A stretch of 64,000 nucleotides of DNA from Candidatus Nomurabacteria bacterium (GCA_016699365.1 CP064973.1:365684-429683); one strand, 5' to 3'. Counted from the stretch's first letter, positions 7,141 to 44,626 are shown. Numbers and translations are program-made. The notes: generated by a model from the letters alone, not told the origin.

Positions 7141-9867
7141 ATGGAACCCAATTTTTTCAAAGAATTACCCAAATTTCAATCTCCTGAAGAGGAGTTGAAA
7201 TTTTTGCGAGAACACATAGCAAAAAGAGAGCAACAGTTAACTGAAGCAGGTTCTACTCCTGAGAAAAAAAATATAGCAGATGAGACCTTGCAGGCTTACA
7301 AGAATATTCCTCAAGAACAAGTTTTGTTGGAAAAAAATAAAGTCTCTGAAGCAGAAGCAGGACAATTTGTATTAAGACTAAAGCCAGAAGCCCACGATGC
7401 AAAGATGGAAGAGCTTTTGGGTGTTTTGATCTCTAGAGGCATAAAGGCTGCTATGGAGATGGCGTCTGGATTTAAGAATCCACATATAGATGATGACTTT
7501 CATAGATTCTTGGTTCAGTACTTAACTTCAACTCAAAACATTCCTGGATTAAAAGAAGGAACTCCGATGTTTAAGGGTCTTAACATGTCTCTTTTTGAAG
7601 TTACACTACCTCCTTCTGCGACAGGTAACGAAAAGAATTTCAAAGAACTTTTAGGTGCTATGGAGCAGTTTTATGCAGGTATGCAATCTGTTGCAGGGGA
7701 TATGAGCAATAAAACAAAAGAATATTACACACTCGAAATTGCTCTATCTAGTTCAAGCAACGAAGTTGTTGTGTACGCTGCTGTTCCAAAAAACAAAGGT
7801 CAACTATTTGAAAAACAAGTTTTATCTTTTTATACAGACGCAAAAGTTCGAGAAGTTAGTGATGACTACAATATATTTTCTGTAGGAGGGGCTTCTTCTG
7901 GTGCGTACGCTAGTTTGTCTGAGAATCCAATTATGCCAATCAAGACTCACGATATGCTTGATCATGATCCTATGCAAGCAGTTTTGAATGTTTTTTCAAA
8001 GATGAAACGTGAAGGTGAAGGAGCAGCTATACAATTTACCATCATCCCAGCTGGGGATACTTTTATAAAACGATTCACAAGTATCTTAAAGGATGTAAAA
8101 GATGGCTTATCTATAAAAGAGGCCAATGAAAAATATAAAGTCGGTTCTGCTATCCTAAGTGCTTCAAAAAATCTATTATTTGGATCTGGAAAAGAAAAAG
8201 ATAAAGACAAAAAAATTGATGATAATGCTGTAAATCATATAAGTGAAAAGATCAAAAGTTCCATTTTAGAAGTCGGCATACGGGTAATTGCTTCTGCAGA
8301 GACAAAAGAGAGAGCAGATGATATCTTGGTTGAGCTAGAAAGTGCGTTCAATCAATTTAATGATCCTGGAAGTAATAGATTTGCTTTCAATAAAATTTCA
8401 GACAAGAATTTACCAGGATTATTTCATGAGTATTCATATAGACTGATAAATGAATCCGAGAACCTTCCTCTAAATCTAAAAGAAATTTCAACAGTTTTTC
8501 ATTTTCCAGTTGGAGTAGGTAATCCACAGCTCAAAGAAGCAAAAGCTGGTATTGCTCCAGCACCACTCGATATGTCTAGTGATGGAATATTGCTCGGTAT
8601 AAATAAATACAGAGGTATGGAAACTCCTGTGCATATGAAGCGCGAAGATCGTATGCGTCACTTTTATGTTATTGGTCAGACCGGTACTGGTAAAACTGTG
8701 ATTTTGAAGAATATGATTGCTCAGGATATTGCAAATGGTGATGGATGTTGTTTTATAGATCCACACGGCACCGATATTCAAGATATATTGTCATATGTTC
8801 CGCCAGAGAGAATCGATGATGTTATCTATTTTGATCCTGCTTATATTCCTCGACCAATGGCGCTAAACATGCTTGAATTTGATCCACGATACCCAGAGCA
8901 GAAGACTATGGTTATAGACACACTCATGATGATCTTCAACCAGCTCTTTTCAAAAGAATCTATGGGGCCGATGTTTGAGCAGTATTTTAAAAATGGTGCA
9001 TATTTGGTTATGGATCATCCAGAGAGTGGCTCTACCTTGCTTGAAATCACCCGTGTTCTAGCAGATAAAGCTTTCCGAGATATGAAGCTACAACACTGTA
9101 AAAACCCTATTGTGAAGCAATTTTGGGCTTCTGCTGAAGCAACTACAGGTGATCAAGGTCTTTCAAACTTCGTACCCTACATCACTTCAAAATTTGATGT
9201 GTTTATCTCAAACGAGTTTACTCGTCCTGTTGTACTCCAAGAAACTTCTGCACTTAATTTTAGAGATATCATGGATAACAAGAAAATTCTTCTTGTGAAT
9301 CTGTCCAAGGGAAGACTAGGGGAACTGAATGCAAACTTGATAGGTATGCTTATTGTTATGAAGTTTCAGATGGCAGCACTTTCACGCGTTGATTCTTATG
9401 GAAAGCAGATGTCAGATTTTTATTTATACATAGATGAATTCCAGAACGTAACAACTCCTGCAATAGCATCTATTCTATCTGAGGCTCGTAAATATAGACT
9501 GTCGCTCAACGTTGCTCACCAATATATTTCACAGCTTCCAGATGATATTAAAAATGCAGTTTTTGGTAACGTGGGTTCAATGGCAGTATTTCGCATAAGT
9601 CCAGAAGATGCTTCGTTCTTGGAACCAAAATTTACTCCAACATTTACTGCACAAGATATTTCAAGACTCGATAACTACAACGCATATATGAGTATGATTA
9701 TAAATGGTGCACCGGCGTTGAAACCCTTCAATATAGAAACATTGGCGCCACGAAAAGGAAACGTAGAAATAGTAGAAAAATTGAAACAAATCTCATATCT
9801 AAAATACGGGCGTGATCGCGCAGAAGTAGAGGAAGAAGTTTTTGCAAAATTCAAGAAGTCTCAATAG
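7141..9867 (+). CDS. large P-loop ATPase, type IV secretion coupling-protein-like (VirD4/TraD/TrwB-type AAA domain) with ~500-aa N-terminal domain of unknown function
   Basis: Walker A HFYVIGQTGTGKTVILKNMI followed by IDPHGTDIQDIL. Walker B DFYLYIDEFQNV and an RKYRLSLNVAHQYISQL region resemble TrwB/TraD-type coupling ATPases. No other T4SS genes nearby. Confidence 0.55.
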   Translation: MEPNFFKELPKFQSPEEELKFLREHIAKREQQLTEAGSTPEKKNIADETLQAYKNIPQEQVLLEKNKVSEAEAGQFVLRLKPEAHDAKMEELLGVLISRGIKAAMEMASGFKNPHIDDDFHRFLVQYLTSTQNIPGLKEGTPMFKGLNMSLFEVTLPPSATGNEKNFKELLGAMEQFYAGMQSVAGDMSNKTKEYYTLEIALSSSSNEVVVYAAVPKNKGQLFEKQVLSFYTDAKVREVSDDYNIFSVGGASSGAYASLSENPIMPIKTHDMLDHDPMQAVLNVFSKMKREGEGAAIQFTIIPAGDTFIKRFTSILKDVKDGLSIKEANEKYKVGSAILSASKNLLFGSGKEKDKDKKIDDNAVNHISEKIKSSILEVGIRVIASAETKERADDILVELESAFNQFNDPGSNRFAFNKISDKNLPGLFHEYSYRLINESENLPLNLKEISTVFHFPVGVGNPQLKEAKAGIAPAPLDMSSDGILLGINKYRGMETPVHMKREDRMRHFYVIGQTGTGKTVILKNMIAQDIANGDGCCFIDPHGTDIQDILSYVPPERIDDVIYFDPAYIPRPMALNMLEFDPRYPEQKTMVIDTLMMIFNQLFSKESMGPMFEQYFKNGAYLVMDHPESGSTLLEITRVLADKAFRDMKLQHCKNPIVKQFWASAEATTGDQGLSNFVPYITSKFDVFISNEFTRPVVLQETSALNFRDIMDNKKILLVNLSKGRLGELNANLIGMLIVMKFQMAALSRVDSYGKQMSDFYLYIDEFQNVTTPAIASILSEARKYRLSLNVAHQYISQLPDDIKNAVFGNVGSMAVFRISPEDASFLEPKFTPTFTAQDISRLDNYNAYMSMIINGAPALKPFNIETLAPRKGNVEIVEKLKQISYLKYGRDRAEVEEEVFAKFKKSQ

Positions 9868-15193: not shown

Positions 15194-16417
15194 TTAATTT
15201 TTGCGTGCCAAATTTGCATTTGAATATTCTTCTTCACCTGTAACTTCACGAATTACGTAAGGTTCAACGAACGACGGTATGATTATTTTCTGATTTTTTT
15301 CGGTCAGTTCGAGTTCCAGCAAAGAATCTTTTGGGAATCTTTTTAAACTCTGATCGAAGAAGTCGTGTTCCAAATACTGATCATCCCATATATAACAGGC
15401 TCTATCTTTTACGACTGGCCAGCATTTTGGATCTTGTCTTATAAGTAGAGTATTGTATTCGTTTTGCTCTAAAATCCTTTCTATTTCTTCTTTGGCGCTT
15501 TTACTATTCAAGATCGGTATCTTTATAGTGTTGTAAAAAGCAAAGAATCCACCTTGACCTTTTCTACGCACTCTTTCGCTTATGCCTCTCTCTGTTAGTA
15601 AATAGTGCTGTATGATGTTTACTTTTTGATAGTGGACAGGTATGTTAGACATTTTAAATTTTCTATCAATCAAAAATTTGCGTTCATCTTCGATTGGTAC
15701 AGGTATTCCTAGAAAATTAAAAACTAACTTAACAACTTCGTTTACTTTTCCTTTGAAGGTTTTGTTTTTGTTGTTCACTATTCGTAAATGTGCGTGCCCG
15801 GTCCAAGACTCTTTAAGTCTTTTGTCTCGGTATCGAGCTTGTCTAGGTGTTTCATACCTCGCTTCGTTACTCAATGTACTGTAGAAATCTAAGGCACCAT
15901 CTGCTGCGGTTACCATGTGTATCACTGCTTCGTATCGAGCATCTCGCAGTCCCACTACCGAATGTCCTTTTGATTGGATCATTTGTTCGTATGCTCTTTG
16001 TTCACGCCTGTTAACATAAGCCAATCCTTCGATTGCCCCACGGTCGTAGAGTATTACTACCTTTTCTGCACCTGTGTCTTTTGCGTATTGTTCGATCATG
16101 TCTTCATAATGCAACATGAAATCTAAAACATACTCTTGGAATTTTATACTTCCAGGTATGAGACGGGAGTTTATAAGGATCGTTGCTGTCTCATGAGCAA
16201 TAAGCACCTTATACCCAAGACTTGTTAGTTTGCTGTGTAAGACTGAAAGCACAGTAGTCTTGCCTGAGCATGGGCCACCAGTTAGAGCGATTTTGTATAT
16301 TCTTTGCTTTTTCATATTTAAATGTACTTTTATATACCCATTAAACGCGATTGTGCTCAGTAAGTCAAACCATAGTAAAAGGCGCATAATTTGTGCGCCT
16401 TTGTTTAGTTTATGCAA
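15194..16417 (-). CDS. fusion protein: N-terminal P-loop NTPase (NadR ribosylnicotinamide-kinase-like/AAA_28) + C-terminal CYTH (triphosphate tunnel metalloenzyme) domain
   Basis: Walker A IALTGGPCSGKTTVL lies near the N-terminus. The C-terminal domain begins with the CYTH hallmark EDERKFLIDRKF and continues with ...YIWDDQYLEHDFFDQ...LELELTE. Confidence 0.55.
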   Translation of the reverse strand: MHKLNKGAQIMRLLLWFDLLSTIAFNGYIKVHLNMKKQRIYKIALTGGPCSGKTTVLSVLHSKLTSLGYKVLIAHETATILINSRLIPGSIKFQEYVLDFMLHYEDMIEQYAKDTGAEKVVILYDRGAIEGLAYVNRREQRAYEQMIQSKGHSVVGLRDARYEAVIHMVTAADGALDFYSTLSNEARYETPRQARYRDKRLKESWTGHAHLRIVNNKNKTFKGKVNEVVKLVFNFLGIPVPIEDERKFLIDRKFKMSNIPVHYQKVNIIQHYLLTERGISERVRRKGQGGFFAFYNTIKIPILNSKSAKEEIERILEQNEYNTLLIRQDPKCWPVVKDRACYIWDDQYLEHDFFDQSLKRFPKDSLLELELTEKNQKIIIPSFVEPYVIREVTGEEEYSNANLARKN

Positions 16418-16818
16418 ATATTTTGGATCAAGTCGGGTAAGATAATCGAGTTAACACTGGGCCCTTTTTTTTCCAGCAACGCATCCTTACTATAAGTTTT
16501 TCCGTGAGGGAATATATACACCAATCCTACTATTTTAGAATTTATTTTTATCGTCCCTCCTGGCATCTTGCTCCATACATCTTTATTGATATTGAAGCTA
16601 ATGCAGCTTTCTGGATGTTTATCCATACTCCACTTGTTATTTTTTTTGTTGTATACACAAATGTTTTTCAGTAACACAAAAAGAAACTTCTCGCTTTGAG
16701 AGTAGTGTTCTATCTCTGCTCTGCAGTGTTTTCCGTGCCTATAGAACTCCACGTATCTATTGGCACCTTCAGTATTGAGTATGTGCGTAAGCTCTCTCCA
16801 ATTATCAACAGTTTTCAT
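16405..16818 (-). CDS. hypothetical protein
   Basis: 137-aa ORF whose 3' end overlaps the start of the AAA-CYTH gene by 13 bp. No family recognised. Confidence 0.35.
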   Translation of the reverse strand: MKTVDNWRELTHILNTEGANRYVEFYRHGKHCRAEIEHYSQSEKFLFVLLKNICVYNKKNNKWSMDKHPESCISFNINKDVWSKMPGGTIKINSKIVGLVYIFPHGKTYSKDALLEKKGPSVNSIILPDLIQNICIN

Positions 16819-16901
16819 ATGTAACTTTTTTTACATTTAATCATAAAAAGAGCGGGGTGTCAAAGGAAAAATAAATAGCCGATAATATCGGCTATGAAAA
16901 T

Positions 16902-17075
16902 TTATTTGAAAGATTTTGATCCAATTTTTACTGCCAAGTACGCAGCTCCAGAAGATGCTGTATTTTTCTTGAGCTTTGACCAGTCTATTTCCTCTGCGAT
17001 ATTTTTATTTTCACTTGAGGCTAACTTGAGCTCATTTATCAATACAAGCTTATTTATTGTTTCTTTGTCTAACAT
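16902..17075 (-). CDS. possible small protein (57 aa) MLDKETINKLVLINELKLASSENKNIAEEIDWSKLKKNTASSGAAYLAVKIGSKSFK
   Basis: It falls below the 60-aa track cutoff and was found by manual translation. It looks more protein-like than the antisense 69-aa ORF at 16894-17103. It lies ~60 bp downstream of conserved box A. Confidence 0.2.
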   Translation of the reverse strand: MLDKETINKLVLINELKLASSENKNIAEEIDWSKLKKNTASSGAAYLAVKIGSKSFK

Positions 17076-17134
17076 ATACGTCGTTTTTTGTGAGTATAGG
17101 TGAAAAATTCAATGAGTGCAAGGATGGGGGGTTG

Positions 17135-17187
17135 GTCACAGATATTTTGCTCGCCGTCGCTTGCAAAATTCCGCGACCCAGGCTCAC
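17135..17187. repeat. conserved ~53-bp box, copy A (gtcacagatattttgctcgccgtcgcttgcaaaattccgcgacccaggctcac)
   Basis: About 85% identical to 20873-20927, copy B. It contains a GTCGC-N12-GCGAC hairpin whose stem is conserved between copies while the loop differs. Confidence 0.6.
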
Positions 17188-17267
17188 TTGTTTTTCTTGC
17201 TAGAAAAATATAATTGCGCCTTTCGCCTCCCCCACGTGAAGTGCGCAGGCACTTCACTCATTTTCAC

Positions 17268-17305
17268 TGAAAAAATAAAAGCGCCTTTTGGGCGCTAATA
17301 TTTTT
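17268..17305. terminator. intrinsic terminator at the 3' end of tmRNA (gcgcc ttttg ggcgc flanked by A and T runs)
   Basis: Read on the minus strand it is GCGCCCAAAAGGCGC + UUUUAUUUUUU, immediately after the tmRNA acceptor end. Confidence 0.6.
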
Positions 17306-17310
17306 ACCAG

Positions 17311-17694
17311 TGGAAATGGGGGGAGTCGAACCCCCGTGCAAGGGAGGTTTCGTATGGAGTCTACGTGCATAGTTTGTTTTATTTGTTTAAAGCAAATATC
17401 TATAAAACCAACAAAATAATATTTACTCGATTCTCAATTGTTTCGAAAATTATCTGAGACGCGATATTTTTCTATCCCGATAGATGTTGCCTCGTGTATT
17501 TTATCGGAAGTCGAACACAGAGACACTCGCGAGCTTAAGCTCGAGCGAGAGCAAGATCAGCCATACCGAAGTATGGTGATGTTACCTTACCAAATGTTTT
17601 TGCATTTGAGTTTTGTGCGCTGTTTTACGAGCGTTTCGCACGAGCTCGGCACGCACCATACAAAACTAATCCTTTGTCGATGCCTTACATTCCC
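17311..17694 (-). ncRNA. ssrA: tmRNA (transfer-messenger RNA, ssrA), ~384 nt
   Basis: Minus-strand 5' end is GGGAATGTAAGGCATCGACAAAGG. The 3' end is GGGGGTTCGACTCCCCCCATTTCCA, a T-arm plus an acceptor that pairs with the 5' end. An internal tag reading frame is present, and the gene lies immediately downstream of smpB. Confidence 0.85.
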
Positions 17695-17698
17695 ATTA

Positions 17699-18160
17699 TT
17701 ACTTTTTCAAAGTTCTACCTATTTCACGATCTATATCACGTTTCTTGATTGTCTCACGTTTATCAAATTTCTTCTTACCTCGTGCGACCGCAACAGAGAC
17801 CTTTATCTTAGGGCCTTTATTATACAATGATATAGGTATTAGTGTCAAACCCTTAGTAGATTCGGTTTTTAATAGGGTTTCGATTTCTTTTTTGTTTAAT
17901 AGTAGTCGTCGAGTTCGAAGCGAGTCGTAATCTTCTTTGGTGTTATTCGGCTGATAAGGGGATATGTTCATCCCTAGGACATAAGCTTCACCACCTCTTA
18001 TTATTACACGCGCACCTTCAAGCGTTGCCTTGCCTGTTCGTATTGATTTGACCTCATTCCCAAAAAGCTCGATTCCTGCTTCTATTTTTTCCAGGAATTC
18101 GTAGTTGAAGTGAGCTTTTCGATTTTCAGTAAATGTAGGCATAGGCAGATTGTAGCACAT
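17699..18160 (-). CDS. smpB: SsrA-binding protein SmpB
   Basis: FNYEFLEKIEAGIELFGNEVKSIRTGKATLEGARV...RRLLLNKKEIETL...KIKVSVAVARGKKKFDKRE is an SmpB signature. The probable true start is the second Met at 18142. Confidence 0.85.
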   Translation of the reverse strand: MCYNLPMPTFTENRKAHFNYEFLEKIEAGIELFGNEVKSIRTGKATLEGARVIIRGGEAYVLGMNISPYQPNNTKEDYDSLRTRRLLLNKKEIETLLKTESTKGLTLIPISLYNKGPKIKVSVAVARGKKKFDKRETIKKRDIDREIGRTLKK

Positions 18161-18393
18161 TTATTTTCTGCATTTTTATAGCTCATTCATTCTCAAAGCT
18201 TTACTTTGAGAATGAATGAGCGAGGAAAGGGGATCGGGGAAAACTCTAGTTTTCTCCGTGGAGGAGAGCAGTGAAACGTTGAGAACCGAGAGGTTCTCAA
18301 AAAAAATTCTCTCGTTTAATATTGTATTTAATGATCTACAAAGATTATAGACGAGGGTAATTTTTTGGTGTATAGTGAAGTACGTTTAAATAT

Positions 18394-20313
18394 ATGAAAT
18401 CACCAATAAAAAACTTAAAAAATCTTAATTCTAAAGGAAAAAAACCAGGTGGCGCACCTACGACTTTTGGTAGTCACATAATCACAGCTTTCTTGATATT
18501 TATGTTGATCTCAGCTCTGTATACTGTAATCACAGAAAATAAGAAAGAAGTCCAAGAAGTTACTTTGTCTGAGGTTGCTTCTCTAATTGAGACCAGTCAG
18601 GTGAAGAGTATTGAAGTTGAAGGGGATGTTTTAAATATCGAGCTCAATGACGGAACTCTCAAGAAATCTAAAAAAGAGATAGAATCTTCTCTATCTGAAA
18701 CTTTAGCAAACTACGGTGTTGCTAGTGAGAAAATTTCTGCTACTCCAATCAATATAAAAAGTCAGACAGGATTTGGGTATTGGCTTATTACAATTCTTCC
18801 GATACTAATTCCGATTGCTTTTATAATCCTATTCTTCTGGTTTATGTCACGTCAGGTAAAAGGCGCGGGGATGCAAGCTTTTTCCTTCGGTCAATCAAAA
18901 GCAAAAATAACTGATCCAAATGATAAAAATAATCGTGTAACTTTCAAAGATGTTGCTGGTTCAAAAGAAGCAAAAGAAGAGTTGAAAGAAATAGTAGATT
19001 TTCTTCGTAATCCAAAAAAGTTTCTTGATATTGGTGCCCGTATTCCAAAGGGTGTTTTGCTTACAGGTGTACCAGGAACAGGAAAGACACTTCTTGCTCG
19101 TGCTGTTGCAGGAGAAGCTGGGGTTCCGTTTTTCCACCTATCAGGTTCAGAGTTTGTAGAGATGTTTGTTGGAGTTGGAGCTAGTCGTGTGCGTGATCTT
19201 TTTCAGCTAGCAAAACGCACAGCACCAGCGATTATATTTATAGATGAGATTGATGCAGTAGGACGAGTGCGTGGAACAGGTGTTGGTGGAGGTAACGACG
19301 AGCGCGAACAGACTCTAAACCAGATTCTAGTAGAGATGGACGGTTTCGAACCCAATGAAAAAGTTATTGTAATGGCTGCAACAAATCGCTCTGATGTACT
19401 GGATCCAGCGTTGCTTCGTCCAGGACGTTTTGATAGAAGAGTAGTCTTGGACTTACCAGATAGATCAGACCGAGAGGAGATTTTGGCTATTCATGCTATT
19501 AGAAAACCACTAGCAGAAGATGTGAACCTCAAGGTTATAGCAGAACGTACACCAGGATTTTCTGGTGCTGATCTATATTCTCTAATGAACGAAGGAGCAA
19601 TACTTGCTGCACGTGAAGATCGCAAGAAAGTTGCTCAGTTTGATTTTATTCGTTCAATCGAAAAAGTTATGATGGGTCCTGAACGCAAGAGTCATTTGTT
19701 GTCTCCAATTGAGAAGAAAATTACTGCATATCACGAAGCCGGTCATGCGGTTGTGGCGAGTGTGCTTCCATATGCAGACCCAGTTCACAAAGTTTCTATA
19801 GTTGCTCGTGGACGTGCTGGAGGATATACACTGAAGCTTCCTCTAGAAGATCGCAAACTTCAATCACGCAAAGAATTTCTAGATGATATAGCTATGTCAC
19901 TCGGTGGATACGTTGCGGAGGAAATGATTTTTGGTGATATTACGACTGGTCCTTCGAACGATCTTCAAGTTTCAAGTTCTCTTGCACGTGCGATGGTTAC
20001 ACGATGGGGGATGAGTGATCTTATTGGTCCAGTAGCGCTTGAAAGCGACGGTGGGCGCACAATGTTTGGTCGCGGCGTAGAAGACCGAGAATATTCTGAA
20101 ACAATGTCTACGAAAATTGATGATGAAGTAAAACGCATAATGAATGAAGCTCTCGAGAAAGCTCGTAAAGTTTTGACTGAAAATCGTAAGTGCCTCGATG
20201 CTGTTGCAGACAAGTTGATTGAAGTAGAAACACTTGAGCAACCAGAGTATGAGGAGATAATTAAAGCTCACGGTATTAGTCCAAAAAAGAAATCTGAAGA
20301 AATAAAAGCATAA
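18394..20313 (+). CDS. ftsH: ATP-dependent zinc metalloprotease FtsH
   Basis: N-terminal TM helices, AAA module [23 protein letters not shown], an SRH region, and the zinc motif HEAGHAVV. Confidence 0.95.
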
Positions 20314-20314
20314 T

Positions 20315-20345
20315 AAAATCCCCCGCAGACGTGGGGGATTTTATT
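20315..20345. terminator. bidirectional terminator hairpin (atccccc gcagacgt gggggat + T run)
   Basis: Lies between convergent ftsH(+) and 20344-20814(-). Confidence 0.55.
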
Positions 20346-20814
20346 ATTGAGCTTTGGTTTGTCCGACTGATTGGAGTTCAGAGGATATTGTATCAAGTAG
20401 GTCGTGGTGGAAGTTCATGCATTCTTCTGCAAGTGTCATAAGGAGTTCATGATTCAGAGTTTCCGCTACACCTTTTACAAGCCCCCAGTGCACGAAAGCT
20501 GCTCCTTCAAAGAACCCTGACCACTCGAGTATTTCTGTTGGATTCTCCCACTCTCCGCCGATATAAAGTTCACGCATCTCTCGAAGCTTTGCACCGGTCT
20601 TTTCAAATTTTGCATTTACGATTTCAGATACACCAAGTTCGCCGGCAAGTTTTTTAAGCTCATCTGCATGAATACGATTTTTATCTAATATATCTGTTAG
20701 TTCGTTTTCTCCTAGAACAGGGGATAGGACAGATCGTCCTTTTTCTAGTGTCTCATCTCCAACCAATGCGAATGCCAATACCTCTCCCAATTTTTTAGCT
20801 GCGAATTCGTTCAT
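20344..20814 (-). CDS. hypothetical protein (possible ferritin-like/four-helix-bundle)
   Basis: 156-aa helical ORF with weak E..H-type motifs (EECMNFHHDLLD). Conserved box B lies ~60 bp upstream of its start. Confidence 0.3.
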   Translation of the reverse strand: MNEFAAKKLGEVLAFALVGDETLEKGRSVLSPVLGENELTDILDKNRIHADELKKLAGELGVSEIVNAKFEKTGAKLREMRELYIGGEWENPTEILEWSGFFEGAAFVHWGLVKGVAETLNHELLMTLAEECMNFHHDLLDTISSELQSVGQTKAQ

Positions 20815-20872
20815 ATGTTTTATTGATTAAGTTATAAGGGTATTTTTATTTTAGCATACGAGTCTATTTGTC

Positions 20873-20927
20873 GTCACAGATATTTTACTCGCCGTCGCTC
20901 GTAAAATTCCGCGACCCCGGCTCGTGG
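20873..20927. repeat. conserved ~53-bp box, copy B (gtcacagatattttactcgccgtcgctcgtaaaattccgcgaccccggctcgtgg)
   Basis: Paralog of 17135-17187. Like copy A it lies just beyond the 3' end of a minus-strand RNA gene (tRNA-Ile) and just upstream of a minus-strand CDS. Confidence 0.6.
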
Positions 20928-21003
20928 TTTTGCGTGCTCGCAAAACATCACTGCGCCTTGGGCTAGTATCGAAAATAGGAAGCAGTTCCTATTTTCTATC
21001 TAG

Positions 21004-21077
21004 TCCACCCTCTTGGATTCGAACCAAGGACCCCAGAGGTATAAGCTCTGTGCTCTAACCAACTGAGCTAAGGGTGG
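21004..21077 (-). tRNA. tRNA-Ile with anticodon UAU (decodes AUA)
   Basis: Minus-strand read CCACCCT TA GCTC AGTTGGTTA GAGC A CAGAG CTTATAC CTCTG GGGTC CTTGG TTCGAAT CCAAG AGGGTGG A. The anticodon loop CTTATAC gives UAU. Confidence 0.7.
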
Positions 21078-21186
21078 ATATATTTGGCTAGACTTTGATA
21101 TTAGCTTATTTAGAGATTTTTTTCAAAGTTTTTGGTGTACTTGCCAACCTAGACAAATGAGTGTAGAGTGATAAAAAAATCGCACA

Positions 21187-21996
21187 ATGAAAAGCGTTAA
21201 AAAAAGATTCAATGATCTTGCTAGTAGAAATCTAGACAAGGTACAGGCATATCATAAATATACACAAGACGACCAGAGAACCTGGAAGTTGTTGTGGGAC
21301 AATCAGACCAGACAACTGGAACATATTGCTCACAAAGCCTTCTTTAAAGGTTTAAAAAAACTTGGGATTACAGGAGAAAAGATTCCTGTATTTTCAGAAA
21401 TTAATCGTCGACTCGAGAAACTCACAGGATGGAGAATATATGTCTGTGATGGAACTCTTGATGATGATATTTTGTACTACGGGCTCATGAACAAGATGTT
21501 CCCGGTGACGAACTTTTTTCGTCTATTGAAGGATTGGCAGTATACTCCTGCCCCCGACATGTTTCATGAGATATTCGGGCATTTGCCGATGCTTACTTTA
21601 AAAAAGTATGGCGAATGTATTCAGATGTTTGGAATAGTGGCGAAAAGATATAATTTCTCACCAGAAGTTATGAAAATCCTCCCACCAGCATTTTGGTTTT
21701 TAGTGGAGTTCATACTTGTTCGTGGTCATGGGGATCGTCGTATTGCTGGCCCAGGAATACTTTCGTCTGTAGGAGAAACTTTATATGCAGCCGCAAGCTC
21801 AAAGCCGACAATTCACTCTTGTGGAGATAGTCCCGAGGCGATGAAGAATTTTATTCGTCAGGCAATGTATACGAAGTATGATATTACTAAGCTTCAAATT
21901 GAATATTTTCAAGTAGAAAGTTTTGACTTGTACTATGAGATGATTATGAAGTATCTGCCTAAGGTTGTTGCCGAAGAATTGAAAATCGCAGCTTAA
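21187..21996 (+). CDS. biopterin-dependent aromatic amino acid hydroxylase-like (phenylalanine 4-monooxygenase-like)
   Basis: Iron-binding motif PDMFHEIFGHLPML (PDxxHExxGHxP) in a monomeric bacterial-size (269 aa) protein. Confidence 0.6.
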   Translation: MKSVKKRFNDLASRNLDKVQAYHKYTQDDQRTWKLLWDNQTRQLEHIAHKAFFKGLKKLGITGEKIPVFSEINRRLEKLTGWRIYVCDGTLDDDILYYGLMNKMFPVTNFFRLLKDWQYTPAPDMFHEIFGHLPMLTLKKYGECIQMFGIVAKRYNFSPEVMKILPPAFWFLVEFILVRGHGDRRIAGPGILSSVGETLYAAASSKPTIHSCGDSPEAMKNFIRQAMYTKYDITKLQIEYFQVESFDLYYEMIMKYLPKVVAEELKIAA

Positions 21997-27793: not shown

Positions 27794-28120
27794 TACGAAA
27801 TCCGATGGCGAAATTTCTGAAAATCCCCAGTCCGAAACCCGCCCGCATTCCTCCCCAGACCCCTCCTGCGGGCGGGAAATCAGCCGAGGCAGGGCGAATC
27901 CATTCCCCCAGACAAATTGTTTCGCCCTGCCGAGTCCATTATATTAGTTTTAATCGTTTGGATTTTGCTCGAAATAGTTTCGAACTTTGTCCAACAAACA
28001 CCGCCAAAATTGAAAATCGGAATCGGAAGCCGAAATGGGGTCGGCACGAAGTGCCGACACAAATGTATTCCCCCCAAAAAATCCTGAATCTGAAAGGGTT
28101 CGCCACGCTCCGCGTGGCTC
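27794..28120. repeat. 327-bp GC-rich, hairpin-dense unit (U). Its left 211 bp and right 120 bp each recur as inverted copies at the outer ends of the 26004-29639 segment.
   Basis: Strong stems such as ggcagggcgaa...ttcgccctgcc, ggtcggcac gaa gtgccgac and gccacgc tcc gcgtggc sit in an otherwise AT-rich genome. The two inverted repeats overlap by 4 bp, CCGC at 28001-28004. Confidence 0.8.
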
Positions 28121-28139
28121 CTCGTTTGCCAATACAATT

Positions 28140-29648
28140 ATGAATAATCAAACCAAAAAGTTTTTCATTTATACTCGCAAGTCTACGGACGACAAAGACA
28201 GACAAGTCCGCAGTATTTCTGACCAATTAGCGGAATTGAAAAGTTTAGCGTTGAAAGAACAAATTGATGTTGTTGATGTCTTTGTCGAAAAGCAGACCGC
28301 CAAAATACCAGGTCGCCCTGTGTTTAATGAAATGTTGGAAAGAATGGAAAAGGGTGAAGCGACTGGTATTTTGGCGTGGCATCCCGATAGACTTGCGAGA
28401 AACTCGGTAGACGGAGGAAAAATCATCTACCTCGTTGATACTGGAATAATTAGTGAAATGAAATTTCCAACTTTTTGGTTTGATCCGACACCGCAAGGCA
28501 AATTCATGCTTTCAATCGCTTTTTCGCAATCCAAGTATTATGTAGATAATTTGTCGGAAAATATAAAGCGAGGTCATCGCAACAAAGTGAAAGACGGAAT
28601 ATGGCCTCAAATGGCTCCGCTTGGATATGTGAACAAAAATAGAAAAATTATTCCCGATGAGAATATCGCACCTTTAATCAAGAAAACATTTGAGGCATAT
28701 TCGTCTGGGTCTTTCACTTTGCGCCAACTCCGCGATAAGTTTAACGAACTTGGATTGAAGCGAAAAAGCGGAAAGGAACTTGCGGTGTCGAATTATCAAA
28801 AACTTTTGAAAAATCCAATTTACACAGGACTAATGTTGTATAACGGCGAGATACACGAAGGTAAACACGAACCGATTATCACAAAGAAACTTTTTGATTC
28901 CGTTCAGGAAGTGATGATGAGAAAAAGCAAACCTCATTCCAAAGGACTAAAACCATTTTTGTACAGAGGATTTTTCCGTTGCGGAGAATGTGGCTGTTTC
29001 ATTACCACTGAAACACAGAAAGGTTATAACTATTTGCGATGTACGAAACGGAAAAATCCTTGCTCACAAAAATATACCCGTGAGGAAATCATCACTTCCG
29101 AAATTCAAAAGGAAATCAAAAAAGTTTCTTTGCCAGACGATTGGGCTAAATGGATGTTAGCGGAAAATGAAAAAGACAAATTGGTGGAAGCCCAATCGTC
29201 TACGCTTTTTGCCGACAAAACAAAAGCCGATATTTCTCTTTTGGATTCCAAAATTGAGAAGCTGATGAACGCTTACTTAGAGAACGCTTTATCACTTGAG
29301 GAATATCGAGAAATGAAAAACAAGCTAGTGAACGAAAAACAGCTTCTCAAAGAGAAATTATCGGCTTTTGAGCAAAAAGCGAATAATCGGTTCGAACTTA
29401 CCGAAAAGTTTTTGAAATACAATATGGAATTGGCAAACGAGGGAATAAATGAAGAGAAACTTCATTTATTCAAAAAAGTCGGTTCGAACTTTATTATTGA
29501 AGCTCGAACCGTACTTTTTGAGCCACGCGGAGCGTGGCGAACCCTTTCAGATTCAGGATTTTTTGGGGGGAATACATTTGTGTCGGCACTTCGTGCCGAC
29601 CCCATTTCGGCTTCCGATTCCGATTTTCAATTTTGGCGGAGGATGTGA
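28140..29648 (+). CDS. large serine recombinase (resolvase catalytic domain + recombinase domain + zinc ribbon + coiled coil)
   Basis: FIYTRKSTDDKDRQVRSISDQ holds the catalytic Ser region. GILAWHPDRLARN, a Cys cluster CGECGCF...C..., and a long C-terminal coiled coil follow. The proposed start is ATG 28140 (MNNQTKK). The last ~40 codons run into inverted repeat 29520-29639. Confidence 0.85.
   Translation: MNNQTKKFFIYTRKSTDDKDRQVRSISDQLAELKSLALKEQIDVVDVFVEKQTAKIPGRPVFNEMLERMEKGEATGILAWHPDRLARNSVDGGKIIYLVDTGIISEMKFPTFWFDPTPQGKFMLSIAFSQSKYYVDNLSENIKRGHRNKVKDGIWPQMAPLGYVNKNRKIIPDENIAPLIKKTFEAYSSGSFTLRQLRDKFNELGLKRKSGKELAVSNYQKLLKNPIYTGLMLYNGEIHEGKHEPIITKKLFDSVQEVMMRKSKPHSKGLKPFLYRGFFRCGECGCFITTETQKGYNYLRCTKRKNPCSQKYTREEIITSEIQKEIKKVSLPDDWAKWMLAENEKDKLVEAQSSTLFADKTKADISLLDSKIEKLMNAYLENALSLEEYREMKNKLVNEKQLLKEKLSAFEQKANNRFELTEKFLKYNMELANEGINEEKLHLFKKVGSNFIIEARTVLFEPRGAWRTLSDSGFFGGNTFVSALRADPISASDSDFQFWRRM
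29520..29639. repeat. inverted copy of the right 120 bp of unit U (reverse complement of 28001-28120, 120/120)
   Basis: Exact match on direct comparison. Its outer end overlaps the CCA end of the adjacent tRNA. Confidence 0.9.
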
Positions 29649-29723
29649 GATTCGAACTCACGGAGCTGTTTAAGGCTCGGCAGTTTAGTAAACTGCTGGT
29701 TTCAACCACTCACCCAATCCTCC
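29634..29723 (-). tRNA. type-II (long variable arm) tRNA with encoded CCA and non-canonical anticodon loop UUACUAA (formal anticodon ACU); identity uncertain (Ser-like)
   Basis: Minus-strand read GGAGGAT TG GGT GAGTGGTTGAA ACC A GCAGT TTACTAA ACTGC CGAGCCTTAAACAGCTCCG TGAGT TCGAATC TCACA TCCTCC G CCA. It has a good acceptor and T-arm, but the anticodon loop is unusual. Confidence 0.5.
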
Positions 29724-29744
29724 ATATTTCAAATACAGAAACAG

Positions 29745-29831
29745 CGGAGACGGTGAGATTCGAACTCACGGGGGTTTTTACACCCCGCCTCCTTAGCAAG
29801 GAGGTACCTTAAACCACTCAGACACGTCTCC
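29745..29831 (-). tRNA. tRNA-Ser (anticodon GCU), type II
   Basis: Minus-strand read GGAGACG...CCTCC TTGCTAA GGAGG + long variable arm CGGGGTGTAAAAACCCCCG + TGAGT TCGAATC TCACC GTCTCC G. The anticodon loop gives GCU. Confidence 0.7.
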
Positions 29832-29876: not shown

Positions 29877-30593
29877 TTAGTGCGCCACCACTAGTGCGAT
29901 TATGTTTCTCGCACCAGCTTCGCGTAAGACTCGGCGAGCTTCTTTTAGAGTTGCACCAGTTGTATATACATCGTCGATCAAGATTATATTTTTTCCTCTC
30001 ATATCTACTCCAGACTTTATTTTGTATGCACCTTGTAGATTTCTCAATCTTTCCAATCGGTTCCTGACTTTTGCTTGAGCTTTTGTGTCGCGGATTTTTT
30101 CTAATATATCTCCACCATATAGAAACTCTTTATCCGTGAGATTTTCTATAAAAGCTCTCGCCAGGAGTGCTGATTGATTATATCCACGTATGCGTTTTCG
30201 GTTTCTTGTGATTGGTATCGGTATAATCAGAGTTTCTTTGTTTGCATTGAAAATATTCTTTTCACTCAATATGTCTATGTTGTGTTCATACAAAGATTGG
30301 CCTAATATTTTTGCAATAGGGAATCTGCCATGGTATTTGAGTAGCCACAATGCATGCTTTACCGTACTGTCTTTATATGAAAAGCATGCATGCACAAAAG
30401 AATCTGGGATTTGGTTCGGTTCGGGGATTTTTCCTAGACATTTATCACATAGTACACTCCCTGTATTTTTGCACTTTATACACTTGGTTGGGAAAATGTA
30501 CTCGAGTATTGATGAGATTATATTCATAAATAAAATATGTATATATGATATAATACAATTACTGAATTTTATATATGGCAAACACATTTTCAA
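29877..30593 (-). CDS. comF: ComF family protein (competence protein ComFC; zinc finger + phosphoribosyltransferase domain)
   Basis: N-terminal CxxC...CxxC (CIKCKNTGSVLCDKC) and the C-terminal PRTase motif ILIDDVYTTGATLKEA. The true start is probably an internal Met near 30527. Confidence 0.75.
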   Translation of the reverse strand: MKMCLPYIKFSNCIISYIHILFMNIISSILEYIFPTKCIKCKNTGSVLCDKCLGKIPEPNQIPDSFVHACFSYKDSTVKHALWLLKYHGRFPIAKILGQSLYEHNIDILSEKNIFNANKETLIIPIPITRNRKRIRGYNQSALLARAFIENLTDKEFLYGGDILEKIRDTKAQAKVRNRLERLRNLQGAYKIKSGVDMRGKNIILIDDVYTTGATLKEARRVLREAGARNIIALVVAH

Positions 30594-31720
30594 AAATACT
30601 AAACGACGGATTGGCGATTTTTAAGAAGACTTCCAATGAGAGTGTTGTTGGAATAGATATTGGATCTTCAGCCATAAAGGTTGTTCAATTAAAGAAGAAG
30701 GGCGCAAAAGCAGTACTAGAGACTTACGGTGCTCTTTCACTTGGCCCGTATTTGGAGGGAGGGGTTGTTGGTCAGACTACAAATCTACCTATAGAAAAAA
30801 TTGCCCAAGGATTAACTGATGTTATGCGCGAAGCTGGTATTACAACAAAACAAGGTGCGGTATCCATACCTGCATCTGCCAGTTTAGTTTTTCTAATTGA
30901 ATTACCTGCAGTTATAGATGAGAGTCAGTTAGCATCGATTATTCCGACTGAGGCTAGAAAATATATTCCAGTTCCAATATCCGAAGTATCACTTGATTGG
31001 TGGCCTATTCCTAAAAAAGATTCTGCTTTAGATGGTGCTGTTGGTCCAGACGGTAAACCTCTAAAAGAAGCAGCGAAGACTGAAGTTTTAGTTGCTGCAA
31101 TTCACAATGACACTATACAAAAATACAGAGACATAATCGCAAAGACAAGTCTGTCAGTAGATTTTTTTGAAATAGAACTTTTTTCAAGCATACGAAGTAG
31201 TTTTGGTAGGGAGCTTTCTACTGTTTTAATAATCGATATGGGTGCTCTTAAAACTAAGTTATCTATTATAGAGTACGGTATCGTCAGAAAGTTCCATAGT
31301 ATTGATCGAGGCTCTCAGGATATAACCAACGCACTGTCAAAATCTTTAGGTGTAACTTTTTTGCAAGCAGAGCAGATGAAGAGAGATTTTGGAATGCTTG
31401 GTAATCAAAAAGATCCAAGTATGCCAGAAATTATTTCATTGTCTGTAGACTATATATTGAGTGAGACAAACAGTGCAATTCTAAATTACGAAAGACAGTA
31501 CGGAAAAACTATTAGTAAAGTTATTTTGACAGGTGGGGGAGTTCTATTGAAAGGTTTTAAAGAAAGAGCAACAGAACAGTTGAGATCAGAAGTTGTGATG
31601 GCTAGACCATTCGACAAAGTAGAGGCACCTGCTTTCTTGGACAATGTTCTTGAAACCGCTGGTCCGGAGTTTGCTGTCGCAGCAGGACTTGCTTTGCGAC
31701 GATTGCAGGAATCTTCATAG
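30575..31720 (+). CDS. pilM: type IV pilus assembly protein PilM (actin-like ATPase fold)
   Basis: VVGIDIGSSAIKVVQLKKKG N-terminus and 381-aa length. First gene of the pilM-N-O string. Confidence 0.85.
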   Translation: MANTFSKILNDGLAIFKKTSNESVVGIDIGSSAIKVVQLKKKGAKAVLETYGALSLGPYLEGGVVGQTTNLPIEKIAQGLTDVMREAGITTKQGAVSIPASASLVFLIELPAVIDESQLASIIPTEARKYIPVPISEVSLDWWPIPKKDSALDGAVGPDGKPLKEAAKTEVLVAAIHNDTIQKYRDIIAKTSLSVDFFEIELFSSIRSSFGRELSTVLIIDMGALKTKLSIIEYGIVRKFHSIDRGSQDITNALSKSLGVTFLQAEQMKRDFGMLGNQKDPSMPEIISLSVDYILSETNSAILNYERQYGKTISKVILTGGGVLLKGFKERATEQLRSEVVMARPFDKVEAPAFLDNVLETAGPEFAVAAGLALRRLQESS

Positions 31721-31802
31721 TTTTACACATTATTTTCTATACATAGTAGCTAGTTCGTATTACAATATAACAATGTTAGAAGCTTGTGCTTCGTTTATGT
31801 AA

Positions 31803-32495
31803 ATGGATAAAGACTTTCAAACATCTTTTATACCTAAAAAATCTCTTGCAGAAGAGCGTGTTACTACGCGTCGACCTGCAAGCCTACTTGTGTTTTTTGC
31901 AACATTAGTTTTCTTTGCATCTTTAGCTTCTGCAGCAGGCGTGTATTTTTATAGAGCGTCATTGGTAAAACAAGTAGAAGCTATGTCTAGTCAGCTTGAT
32001 AAAGCTAGAGCACGTTTTGAACCATCGCTTATCACTGATCTTGAAGACTTAGATCGTAGACTATCTGCATCAGAGAGTGTCATATCAAATCATACAGTTA
32101 TAAGTCCTATATTTGAGACACTTGAAACTTTGACTCTAAAAACAATTCGCTATACAAGCATGGATTATGAGATTGATAAAGAAAATGGAGGAGCTGTAAA
32201 TATAAAACTCCGAGGCCAGTCTTCAAGTGGCTATACTCCTATAGCGTTACAGTCTGATATGTTCTTGCAAAACAAATACATAATAGATCCAATATTTTCA
32301 AATCTTTTAGTTGATGCAAGCGGAAAGGTGAACTTTGATTTAGAGTTTACAGTCGATCCTACATATTTGTCATACACAGAATTTGTAAATAGATCTGCAG
32401 TTTCAGACACTTCAGATATAGTTCCGGTTAGCACACAGACAACAGATACATCTGCAACAGAAGACACTACCAATAGTACCCAACTAAACCCATAA
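31803..32495 (+). CDS. PilN-like pilus assembly protein (single TM + periplasmic domain)
   Basis: N-terminal TM helix, then a coiled/periplasmic domain. Position after pilM. Confidence 0.5.
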   Translation: MDKDFQTSFIPKKSLAEERVTTRRPASLLVFFATLVFFASLASAAGVYFYRASLVKQVEAMSSQLDKARARFEPSLITDLEDLDRRLSASESVISNHTVISPIFETLETLTLKTIRYTSMDYEIDKENGGAVNIKLRGQSSSGYTPIALQSDMFLQNKYIIDPIFSNLLVDASGKVNFDLEFTVDPTYLSYTEFVNRSAVSDTSDIVPVSTQTTDTSATEDTTNSTQLNP

Positions 32496-32499
32496 ATTT

Positions 32500-33081
32500 A
32501 TGATGAGATTTATTTTTCCAATTATTTTGTTTGTAGCCTCAATAGGATTGTTTTTGGGTGTAACAAATCCTATCTATAAAGCCACAAAAGAACTCAAAGC
32601 AGAAACAGCAACCTATGCTGAAGCTTTGGCTAATTCAAAACAATTGGAAGAGAGACGTGATGAGCTTGTGGCTAAATACAATGAATTTGCTCCAAGTGAT
32701 GTTGAGAGATTGCGAAAGCTCTTGCCAGACAACGTAGACAATATACGTTTGATTTTAGAGATTGATTATATAGCTTCTAGATATGGTATGTCAGTTACAA
32801 ACGTAGCTTTTGACGTAGACAACAAAGAAGCTTCAGATACAGAAAATTCAATAGCTGAAGGGGGAAGTAGTTTGAGTATGACAAATCGAGATATTGGAAC
32901 ATTTGATTTGAGTTTTTCTACACAAGCTTCTTATGATAATTTTCAAAAGTTTTTGATTGATTTGGAAAATAGTTTGCGTATTGTAGATATACAGGAAATT
33001 ACTTTCGATTCAACAGCTTCAGAAGGCAGAGATTTTTATAAGTACAACATTAAGATTAAAACATATTGGTTAAAGAATTAG
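32500..33081 (+). CDS. PilO-like pilus assembly protein
   Basis: N-terminal TM helix plus a coiled-coil. Position and topology typical of PilO. Confidence 0.5.
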   Translation: MMRFIFPIILFVASIGLFLGVTNPIYKATKELKAETATYAEALANSKQLEERRDELVAKYNEFAPSDVERLRKLLPDNVDNIRLILEIDYIASRYGMSVTNVAFDVDNKEASDTENSIAEGGSSLSMTNRDIGTFDLSFSTQASYDNFQKFLIDLENSLRIVDIQEITFDSTASEGRDFYKYNIKIKTYWLKN

Positions 33082-33085
33082 ATTT

Positions 33086-33706: not shown

Positions 33707-33726
33707 TTGTTTGTTCAAATTTTTAT

Positions 33727-35463: not shown

Positions 35464-35506
35464 ATTGGTAAAAAACGGAGTGTTTATAGTATAATTAGAA
35501 GCAATT

Positions 35507-35908: not shown

Positions 35909-35910
35909 TT

Positions 35911-36969: not shown

Positions 36970-36978
36970 TTTTAAAAT

Positions 36979-38181: not shown

Positions 38182-38194
38182 AATAAATATAATT

Positions 38195-41850: not shown

Positions 41851-41870
41851 GTTGAGTCTATTGAAGTTTT

Positions 41871-42506: not shown

Positions 42507-42513
42507 AAAATAA

Positions 42514-44621: not shown

Positions 44622-44626
44622 AATAT

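Follow-up and report, generated by a model that had tools for sequence, protein, structure and literature searches.

Two conserved boxes on the minus strand of the window, i.e., the stretch of 64,000 nucleotides of Candidatus Nomurabacteria DNA that was analysed here, are the P3 arms of two copies of a three-way junction (P1/P2/P3) of about 100 nt. The whole of the observations is probably best read as a family of small, ORF-less, site-specific insertion elements of CPR/Patescibacteria, for which we propose guide-directed insertion at the RNA level.

An insertion is about 130-250 bp long and contains no ORF, and the three-way junction is its distal end. It begins with 8-60 nt that repeat the target gene starting at the insertion point (+1) and restore the 3' end of the tRNA, the tmRNA or topA. 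One or two hairpins follow (P0, often with a CUGC loop), some of them with a U-tract, that substitute for the host terminator. The next part is a guide, the reverse complement of target positions -2 to +N, and after it come, in order, one conserved A, P2, and P3 with its GUGAC end. The native target (from +1 onward, DR2) stands directly after GUGAC, and pairing of the guide with DR2 closes P1 of the three-way junction.

Copies in the window

The window contains exactly two occurrences of a 27-nt degenerate core, CGCCGTCGCTNGNAAAATTCCGCGACC, at 17152-17178 and 20890-20916, versus 0 in 100 shuffles. These are the two boxes, A and B, that an earlier note on this DNA had reported, and we verified their coordinates; their 45-nt P3 parts (17135-17179 and 20873-20917) differ at 3 positions, and on the 5' side in the minus-strand reading the similarity extends beyond P3 as far as about 17232 and 20960. 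Both boxes do lie 3' of minus-strand RNA genes, as had been noticed: the tmRNA (17308/17310-17694) and tRNA-Ile(UAU) (21003-21077). The second hairpin with a "GCAG loop" near each box exists as well, and in the minus-strand reading its loop is CUGC (17236-17257 and 20971-20996). A divergent third copy, C, is located after tRNA-Gln (61904-62059). The parts of the three copies are as follows.

Copy A
17310..17330, minus strand: H/DR1, tmRNA T-loop to 3' end, UUCGACUCCCCCCAUUUCCAC; left target copy
17270-17296, minus strand: terminator hairpin and U-tract
17259-17269, minus strand: guide2, CAGUGAAAAUG; imperfect reverse complement of the tmRNA acceptor 3' strand
17236..17257, minus strand: P0 hairpin, GUGAAGUGC-CUGC-GCACUUCAC
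17222..17235, minus strand: guide1, GUGGGGGAGGCGAA; reverse complement of tmRNA UUCGACUCCCCC with 1 mismatch; P1 5' strand
17180..17221, minus strand: conserved A, then P2 (GGC-GCA...hairpin, AGCA loop...GAG-CC)
17135..17179, minus strand: P3 (box A), GGGUCGCGGAAUUUUGC-AA-GC-GACG-GC-GA-GCAAAAUAUCUGUGAC, end ...GUGAC
17122..17134, minus strand: DR2, CAACCCCCCAUCC; decayed second copy of the tmRNA T-loop/T-stem 3' part; P1 3' strand

Copy B
20997-21010, minus strand: tRNA-Ile end and H (GGGUG/GACUAGAUA)
20971-20996, minus strand: P0 hairpin, CUGC loop
20959-20970, minus strand: guide, GAUACUAGCC-CA; CA is complementary to target -2,-1 (UG)
20918-20958 and 20873-20917, minus strand: P2 and P3 (box B); CM score 109.6 bits
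20863..20872, minus strand: DR2, GACAAAUAGA; native tRNA-Ile end and flank (empty site in relative L107, GGACAAUAGAAAA)

Copy C
62105-62123, minus strand: left part, tRNA-Gln T-loop to 3' end
62065-62098, minus strand: AT-rich hairpin
62041-62059, minus strand: guide, GAGGGUACAUGUAUUCGAA; 17/18 match to the reverse complement of the tRNA 3' part
61984-62040, minus strand: divergent P2
61922-61983, minus strand: P3 of the ACUUAG...CUUAGUAA subtype, end CUCGUGAC
61904-61921, minus strand: DR2, CGAAUCCAUGUAUACCAC

The insertion point of copy A is between UU and CGAC of the tmRNA, and the final AA of its guide1 pairs with these UU at target positions -2,-1. The P3 of copy C contains no GCGAC at all.

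Fold and covariation

The fold is kept by abundant compensatory change. Minus-strand folds of copies A and B have z-scores of -4.9 and -5.5, and those on the plus strand are weaker. In an alignment of 77 sequences, the paired cells amount to 90%, compared to 34-46% when the partners were slid, and there are 549 cells with double changes, compared to 183 in shuffles. The covariation check across relatives that had been suggested earlier bears the fold out in a broader set: 36 of the 39 base pairs, the basal P3 pairs included, have changes on both sides. G-U pairs outnumber A-C mismatches (205 versus 45). It should be noted that the apparent invariance of P3 is inflated because an exact 20-nt pattern served as the seed of the alignments.

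This evidence also revises which hairpin is conserved. The inverted repeat GTCGC-N12-GCGAC, described earlier as a hairpin with a conserved stem, is present; however, covariation favours the long P3 hairpin instead, and the shorter one was rejected as the conserved fold. Likewise, the covariation-like pattern seen between the boxes is sound inasmuch as the differences between A and B are compensatory (UUUUGC/GCAAAA versus UUUUAC/GUAAAA), but these are located in the long hairpin, GGUCGCGG:CYGUGACC. The GTCGC/GCGAC complementarity could represent an alternative pairing, and it recurs as GCGCGAC/GUCGCGC in the short-P2 subtype. A kissing interaction between the CUGC loop of P0 and the AGCAG loop of P2 is complementary on paper; the permutation test did not support it (at least 4 pairs in 34% versus 31%, with imperfect automatic loop extraction).

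Targets, direct repeats and guide

Insertions are found in the T-loops of tRNA and tmRNA genes, at tRNA 3' ends, at the 3' end of topA and around the stop codons of small genes. The exact match of the target direct repeat has a median of 8 nt (mean 10.7, maximum 31 nt), compared to a median of 5 in mismatched controls. At topA the direct repeat is 60 nt long and the element supplies a new protein C-terminus, with the native end and terminator coming after DR2. In most copies 33-112 nt separate the left repeat from the junction. The 12-nt reverse complement of the guide matches the site 33-112 nt upstream in about 40% of all copies. In 19 of 24 cases, the dinucleotide that precedes the conserved A covaries with target positions -2,-1 (the combinations of target and guide being UU/AA, UG/CA, CA/UG, GA/UC and GU/AC); the exceptions are tandem copies or parsing errors. 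In topA copies read by eye (e.g., L024 and L064), a guide U can stand opposite A of the left copy and opposite G of DR2, which suggests that guide pairing tolerates wobble, as RNA does.

Distribution and mobility

An exact-pattern scan of GTDB representative genomes yielded 104 loci, about 85 of them genuine and nearly all in CPR, and a metagenome scan yielded at least 120 loci, with at least 91 genuine copies among the matches listed. Copies number in the hundreds, and the possibility raised earlier, that only two copies exist and relatives lack them, fails. The suggestion of a small non-autonomous repeat family was right in spirit but understated the case, as these are phylum-wide, structured, site-specific insertions.

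A tRNA, a tmRNA or a further copy is located on the same strand no more than 100 nt upstream in 67 of 112 copies. The constant neighbour is the upstream gene, the 3' end of which is duplicated by the element. The tally of the genes that follow the box, also called for earlier, revealed no common partner: the ORFs after 89 copies are heterogeneous (VOC, RelA/SpoT, YraN, GrpE), and many copies have none. The outcome essentially matches the alternative under which the boxes belong to tRNA/tmRNA 3' trailers without a link to downstream genes. A single copy carries a cargo gene, DUF488, and no larger cargo was seen among the metagenomic copies listed (at least 91). In about 200 copies, there is no enzyme gene between the left repeat and P0, i.e., no autonomous copy. 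A phage or plasmid origin was rejected, with no matches in IMG/VR, INPHARED and PLSDB.

Close relatives were picked via FtsH homologues, the exact SmpB of the window being without a record. In L107 the tmRNA and tRNA-Ile sites are both cleanly empty. The FtsH protein of L108 is identical, yet its tmRNA site is filled and the native terminator has been pushed beyond DR2. The window, L105 and L106 (FtsH 97% and 92% identical) have differing subtypes, one decayed copy, and 2-3 tandem copies. As judged by these genome comparisons, the element is mobile, because the tmRNA and tRNA-Ile sites that are occupied in the window are empty, hold other subtypes or carry tandem arrays in close relatives. In L223 a 131-nt unit is in tandem; the tandem units are identical and, therefore, unequal crossing-over, rather than repeated insertion, may explain the arrays.

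Proposed mechanism

We infer from the anatomy of the copies a scheme that is quite possible, if still short of the probable. The junction would act as RNA, on the strand of the host gene. The guide would base-pair with the uninterrupted target across the insertion point, and the P2/P3 core would position the 3' end of the element (GUGAC) for joining to target position +1. Joining could occur by RNA catalysis, in a reverse-splicing-like reaction, or the site could be presented to a protein encoded elsewhere. The insertion would be harmless to the host gene because the element supplies its own gene end and terminator. The proposal addresses the joining step and leaves out the joint gain of a new target copy and a new guide.

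More tentatively, and on balance doubtfully, the P2/P3 core of about 100 nt and a programmable guide of 9-24 nt might be the machine itself, either a new ribozyme class or the RNA of an undescribed RNA-guided insertion system of CPR. In both versions, the GUGAC 3' end would join +1 and make harmless "gene-end-replacing" insertions.

Several observations bear on this scheme. The junction lies 3' of terminator-like hairpins and, therefore, would become RNA only through read-through or from an unseen promoter. No reverse transcriptase (RT) or tyrosine integrase was found among the 56 window ORFs covered by the Pfam scan (about 20 further ORFs of at least 100 aa are outside it), and no partner enzyme was identified. 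The only recombinase among the ORFs scanned is a large serine recombinase, located at tRNA-Ser; serine recombinase chemistry would not yield repeats of 8-60 nt. Finally, a folded single-stranded DNA recombination site would give the same anatomy of target copy, inverse copy, folded region and target copy.

Alternative explanations

This last point leads to the alternative that survives best, although we consider it rather unlikely: the junction would be a recombination site made of folded single-stranded DNA (or structured in some other way), served in trans by a recombinase encoded elsewhere. P1, formed by the guide and the target copy, would imitate double-stranded target DNA, with the elements acting as non-autonomous cassettes. 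There are precedents, namely the attC sites of integrons and the forked CTX-phage hairpin, but the attC cores RYYYAAC/GTTRRRY are missing here. The topology of target copy, cargo, inverse copy, folded region and target copy fits, single sites hold tandem arrays, and one cassette carries a gene; on the other hand, none of about 200 copies has an associated recombinase, and viral contigs as well as phage and plasmid records contain no match. The insertion positions in the T-loop and at the 3' end fit tRNA-targeting integrases, for which they are reportedly the classical sublocations. Conversely, each of the many targets would need a specificity of its own, which a sequence-reading recombinase does not supply. 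The place behind terminators speaks against efficient transcription, whereas in DNA the conserved G-U pairs and the guide pairing that relies on wobble would amount to G-T mismatches.

It is improbable that the junction is a resident functional small RNA, co-transcribed with the 3' ends of tRNAs, tmRNA or mRNAs and freed by tRNA processing, in the manner of tRNA-linked small RNAs. The repeats would then be old local duplications, retained solely to close the P1 helix. The rRNA-like conservation of the P3 sequence over CPR phyla, the tandem G-A motifs in P3, which are typical of protein-binding RNA, and the strand, which is always that of the upstream RNA gene, would all suit such an RNA. So would the P1 pairing kept in old topA copies despite diverged repeats; however, the guide also complements two bases upstream of the repeat, which is needless for a mere closing helix. 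Near-identical strains differ in having empty or filled sites, subtypes are swapped at one site, several differing copies and tandem arrays occur per genome, and protein-gene ends are among the targets, with the reading frame restored. The promoter/operator or 5'-UTR element controlling the downstream gene, favoured in the earlier note, is hardly credible, since the promoter-like hexamers, which in copies A and B are found at the 3' end or immediately beyond it, belong to flank that is not conserved, the genes after about 85 copies are mutually unrelated while the upstream gene is the conserved partner, and copies are found in tandem and also in front of other tRNAs.

Implications

If the guide sets the insertion site, the insertion element would be a very small natural sequence-programmed insertion system, built on a compact core without any protein gene in cis; its interest would lie in a potentially new ribozyme or RNA-guided mechanism and in its use as a scaffold for tools. 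The family accounts for a common unannotated feature of CPR genomes, i.e., structured DNA after many tRNA genes, partial copies of tRNA 3' ends and changed ends of genes such as topA, and indicates that reduced CPR genomes harbour an active, fast-turning-over family of mobile elements. Caution is needed in annotation, as tRNA 3' fragments and short "ORFs" in such spacers are by-products of the element.

Comparison with known systems

The layout of the element, with a complement of its own target, matches none of the families tested, and a full-text literature search found no published description of it. The nearest match in the literature was to TIGR-Tas arrays, which have 36-nt guides and are unrelated to the element. 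The Rfam search proposed earlier produced no match to the element: at gathering thresholds, Rfam 15 yields only the tmRNA and tRNAs in the window, nothing credible overlaps the element in 16800-21200 at E <= 10, and 18 related loci yield only tRNAs and one LOOT RNA elsewhere. For the element, scores stayed below threshold in all Rfam families, including hammerhead, twister, twister-sister, pistol, hatchet, hairpin and HDV ribozymes, group I and II introns, tRNA-like, SRP and 6S RNAs.

Specific candidates were rejected as follows. A hammerhead is contradicted by the absence of CUGANGA, the strand reading CYGUGAC and being base-paired, and GAAA occurs only with target UU at -2,-1, i.e., it covaries with the target. 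A group I intron requires a P3-P9 core of at least 200 nt, a U-G 5' splice pair and a terminal G; here the core has about 100 nt, the base at -1 can be U, A or G and forms a Watson-Crick pair, and the last base of the element is C. For a primer-binding site, retron or DGR, the guide should match CCA, but it matches the genomic flank (tmRNA ...CCAC/UGGUA), and no RT adjoins any copy; the repeat differences, read by eye, are not confined to adenines, as they would be in a DGR. A riboswitch or cis-regulatory leader needs related downstream genes, and those of the 89 copies are heterogeneous.

The elements resemble MITEs, REP/BIME, Correia and RPE repeats in being short, non-coding, multi-copy and non-autonomous. 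They differ from these in that terminal inverted repeats and a fixed-length target-site duplication are absent, and in their strict site specificity, fixed orientation to the host gene and a junction conserved over phyla; a MITE was rejected because the repeat is variable (8-60 nt) and target-derived and the two ends of the element are dissimilar.

Integrative elements of tRNA and tmRNA genes, i.e., genomic islands and prophages with tyrosine integrases and their integrase-less "cis-mobilisable" derivatives, share T-loop or 3'-end insertion, the replacement of the 3' part of the gene, a flanking direct repeat and tandem accretion. As in these, direct repeats of the 3' part of the target gene flank the insert and the gene is restored; there is no integrase gene inside the element. 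In contrast to them, the elements are only 130-250 bp long, lack an integrase and usually any gene, possess a covarying three-way junction and a guide across the insertion point, and also target topA and small-protein-gene ends.

Integron attC cassettes and CTX-phage attP are alike in the folded single-strand structure at the distal end, in a basal helix made of an inverse copy paired with boundary sequence common to the insertion site, in arrays at one site, and in a structure that outlasts sequence in parts of the fold. However, the R''/R' core consensus is lacking, and no integron platform or dif site is apparent. The attC motifs R'' RYYYAAC and R' GTTRRRY are absent from the base of the fold, the boundary being GUGAC followed by C(G/A)A with a guide that varies with the target, and no IntI-like match was found among the window ORFs scanned. 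The boundary is target-dependent (8-60 nt), P3 is nearly invariant over phyla, and the G-U pairs point to RNA.

Group I and II introns (IGS, EBS/IBS) and the bridge and seek RNAs of IS110/IS1111 likewise use a short target-complementary stretch within a structured RNA that spans the insertion point. Compared to introns and ribozymes, the core is only about 100 nt long, has no Rfam match and is accompanied by no ORF (no RT, no DEDD recombinase); splicing is not evident so far, and host function is kept through the duplicated gene end and terminator. Bridge and seek RNAs have two guides around a 2-nt core, whereas the element has a single guide and a long identity region; an IS110/IS1111 RNA was rejected on account of the one guide, the 8-60-nt identity and the lack of an ORF. 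As in guide-using mobile RNAs, specificity shifts with the guide, and, as with IStrons and introns, the host gene stays functional.

Conserved fold of the repeated boxes

Boxes A (17135-17187) and B (20873-20927) lie where the earlier note had placed them, and their 27-nt degenerate core is found at exactly two positions in the window and in none of 100 shuffles. The repeat was confirmed, whereas its reported length of ~53 bp was not: in the minus-strand alignment downstream of the two RNA genes, the similarity spans ~95-110 nt, from the AAGGCGCA motif to CUGUGAC. The two minus-strand RNA genes directly upstream were identified as expected by both ARAGORN and Rfam:

17308/17310-17694, minus, tmRNA
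21003-21077, minus, tRNA-Ile(UAU)

It should be noted that tRNA-Ile with anticodon UAU is uncommon in bacteria; this tRNA is kept in all four relatives examined.

The minus strands of the two copies fold with -45.7 and -42.6 kcal/mol (z = -4.9 and -5.5 versus shuffled sequence), and the plus-strand folds of both are weaker. The fold is a three-way junction of (i) P1, the closing helix; (ii) P2, whose base is GNC/GNC, whose internal loop is GGA/GA and whose variable hairpin has the loop AGCA; and (iii) P3, a long hairpin that includes the boxes and reads GGGGUCGCGGAA - variable stem - GA-GC-GACG-GC-GA - variable stem - UAUCYGUGACC. In an alignment of 77 sequences, the proposed structure pairs 90% of cells, compared to 34-46% with partners slid, and contains 549 double-change cells, compared to 183 in shuffles. 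The covariance model derived from this alignment scores the copies after tmRNA and tRNA-Ile (copies A and B) at 101 and 110 bits. In a broader, model-fitted alignment, 36 of 39 pairs are changed on both sides, and basal P3 pairs also change on both sides (GC/AU/CG and AU/GC). The differences between the boxes that had been described as covariation-like are indeed compensatory changes, in mid-P3 and in P2. G-U pairs outnumber A-C mismatches (205 versus 45), indicating that the folding strand is the strand of the host gene. No Rfam 15 family covers the junction, even at E <= 10.

The element begins with a left target copy, followed by a P0 hairpin (often with a CUGC loop), the guide, a conserved A, P2, P3 ending in GUGAC and a second, native target copy (DR2). 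The bidirectional terminator between ftsH and a 156-aa gene (20310-20347) also has CUGC in its minus-strand loop; thus, CUGC loops may be a general terminator habit of this genome and not element-specific.

Targets and direct repeats

In 67 of 112 copies, a tRNA, a tmRNA or a further copy lies on the same strand within 100 nt upstream. In the junctions read, the 3' part of the upstream gene recurs in the P1 3' strand and the bases following; the exact repeat has a mean length of 10.7 nt (up to 31), compared to 5.5 in mismatched controls. In tRNA targets, the repeat begins in the T-loop (after UU, at CGA...) or two bases short of the 3' end, and covers the acceptor strand plus slightly more, e.g., CGATTCTCCCATCCCGCACA in locus L001.

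Copies without a tRNA are placed at the ends of protein genes, including the stop codons of small genes. The topA 3' end is the target in locus L064 and in a group of loci with the same conserved coding pattern upstream. The L064 repeat is 60 nt long, and the host gene is restored: the element-borne topA copy creates a new protein C-terminus (...HKLGK-stop), and the native topA end (...HKLSSVTK-stop) and terminator come after the second repeat. In another locus (L010, 4082-4360, minus), one copy is apparently inserted within the P3 5' strand of another, between GGG and CGAGAGCAC, a position that resembles the T-loop target (GGUU followed by CGA).

The guide

As the 3' strand of P1 repeats target sequence, the 5' strand of P1 is the reverse complement of the target. 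Reverse complement matches of 12 nt lie 33-112 nt upstream in ~40% of copies, and several guides extend over the entire 3' part of the tRNA, the P0 hairpin arising as a branch from them. The two bases between the P1 5' strand and the single conserved A complement target positions -2 and -1, i.e., the two bases before the insertion point, which precede the repeat and do not recur at the right-hand junction. This was observed in 19 of 24 cases (target/guide UU/AA, UG/CA, CA/UG, GA/UC and GU/AC); the other cases are tandem copies or parsing errors. Hence, it is the uninterrupted target, read through the insertion point, that the guide matches. The right end of the element is always ...GUGAC, followed by the first target base (+1), usually in C(G/A)A. 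In topA copies read by eye (e.g., L064 and a second locus, L024), a U of the guide can stand opposite A on the left and opposite G on the right, which is compatible with wobble pairing. The three window copies, of which the divergent third (copy C, 61905-62056, directly 3' of tRNA-Gln) was found by a covariance-model search, are as follows:

Copy A, T-loop insertion in tmRNA; guide GUGGGGGAGGCGAA, one mismatch to UUCGACUCCCCC; right repeat decayed
Copy B, inserted two bases before the tRNA-Ile end; P1 weak
Copy C, T-loop insertion in tRNA-Gln; 17/18 guide; 12-nt exact repeat

Just downstream of tRNA-Ser(ACU), at 29556-29634 (minus), GGGGUCGGCAC-GAAG-GUGCCGAC followed by AC resembles a minimal P3 arm, possibly a fourth relative in stripped-down form that falls under the covariance-model threshold.

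Turnover in relatives and distribution

The genome that contains the window belongs to Pacebacteria/Paceibacterota, and a MAG protein was 100% identical to its FtsH. We fetched the same region from close relatives (L105-L108). The tmRNA site carries the main subtype in the window, a decayed copy without P2 in L105 (FtsH 97%), and a short-P2 subtype and a remnant in L106 (FtsH 92%); it is filled in L108 and empty in L107, though the FtsH proteins of these two are identical. The native terminator directly follows tmRNA in L107, and the same terminator stands after DR2 in L108. The tRNA-Ile site holds one copy in the window, two variants in L105, three tandem copies in L106 and none in L107, whose native flank agrees with the window DR2 (GACAAAUAGA). 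In one copy, the left repeat and P0 are separated by a DUF488 gene, and a 131-nt unit is tandemly repeated in locus L223.

Around these RNA genes, the spacers are hot spots for indels. Relatives lack, at the corresponding position, the AAA_28 P-loop gene (407 aa; 15194-16417, minus) that lies downstream of copy A in the window; conversely, L105/L106 (6932-8256) have three small ORFs, placed between ftsH and the gene for 156 aa, that the window lacks. In L107 (2168-3937), the tmRNA terminator is accompanied by two additional genes, of 322 aa and 235 aa (weak Diphthami_syn_2 matches for the 235-aa product), which L108 lacks. In L223 (9612-9840), the anticodon loop of a second tRNA-Ile copy is broken by ~135 nt holding its own tRNA 3' end copy (UUGCAGGCGCACAAAGG) and a hairpin, apparently a small insertion of another type at this hot spot.

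Using the exact pattern GTCGCGGAA-N8-GCGACGGCGAG and one genome per GTDB species, we found 104 loci, of which ~85 contain the whole motif and the remainder are high-GC chance matches. Whole-motif copies are almost all from Patescibacteria/CPR (Saccharibacteria, Kaiserbacteria, Paceibacterota, Lloydbacteria, Moranbacteria and others), and the covariance model detected many further copies of other subtypes in these loci, including tandem runs. A metagenome scan yielded at least 120 loci, with 91 genuine copies among the matches listed. A Lloydbacteria locus (L026, 5621-5752, plus) also contains a LOOT RNA (RF03000), which has no relation to the element.

Mechanism and comparison with known systems

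The analysis shows the anatomy of the element, its conserved fold, the rule that the guide follows, host-gene restoration and turnover. As a putative mechanism, the junction would act as RNA, and its guide would pick the insertion site and place GUGAC for joining to +1. The G-U pairs, the use of wobble and the junction-centred boundary favour such an RNA-guide mechanism. Conversely, the element sits behind terminator-like hairpins and no partner enzyme was found, which counts against it; the scan of 56 window ORFs (a further ~20 of >=100 aa lie outside it) detected neither a reverse transcriptase nor a tyrosine integrase. The sole recombinase among the scanned ORFs lies at tRNA-Ser:

28035-29648, plus, large serine recombinase, 537 aa (Resolvase + Recombinase + Zn ribbon)
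29634-29831, minus, tRNA-Ser(ACU) in tandem with tRNA-Ser(GCU)

Its 3' end overlaps the tRNA-Ser with the unusual anticodon ACU and encoded CCA, and this region is probably a separate integrated element. The window also contains a type IV pilus/competence-like cluster (PilM, PilO, two T2SSE ATPases, PilC, prepilin peptidase and several pilins) and a 908-aa VirD4/TrwB-like protein, at 30575-45823 and 7141-9867.

In the main alternative, a recombinase would act in trans on a folded single-stranded DNA site, as in attC or CTX. This reading accounts for the same topology; however, it leaves unexplained both the G-U pairs and the many different targets. A resident small RNA is much less likely. So is the promoter/operator module for the downstream gene proposed in the earlier note; the genes downstream of the copies are mutually unrelated.

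No description of the element was found in Rfam or in the full-text literature searched, in which subscription journals are partly covered, and the element fails the defining tests of every family considered. It is similar to tRNA-targeting integrative elements in its replacement 3' end, direct repeats and single-site accretion, and would work similarly to guide-using mobile RNAs.
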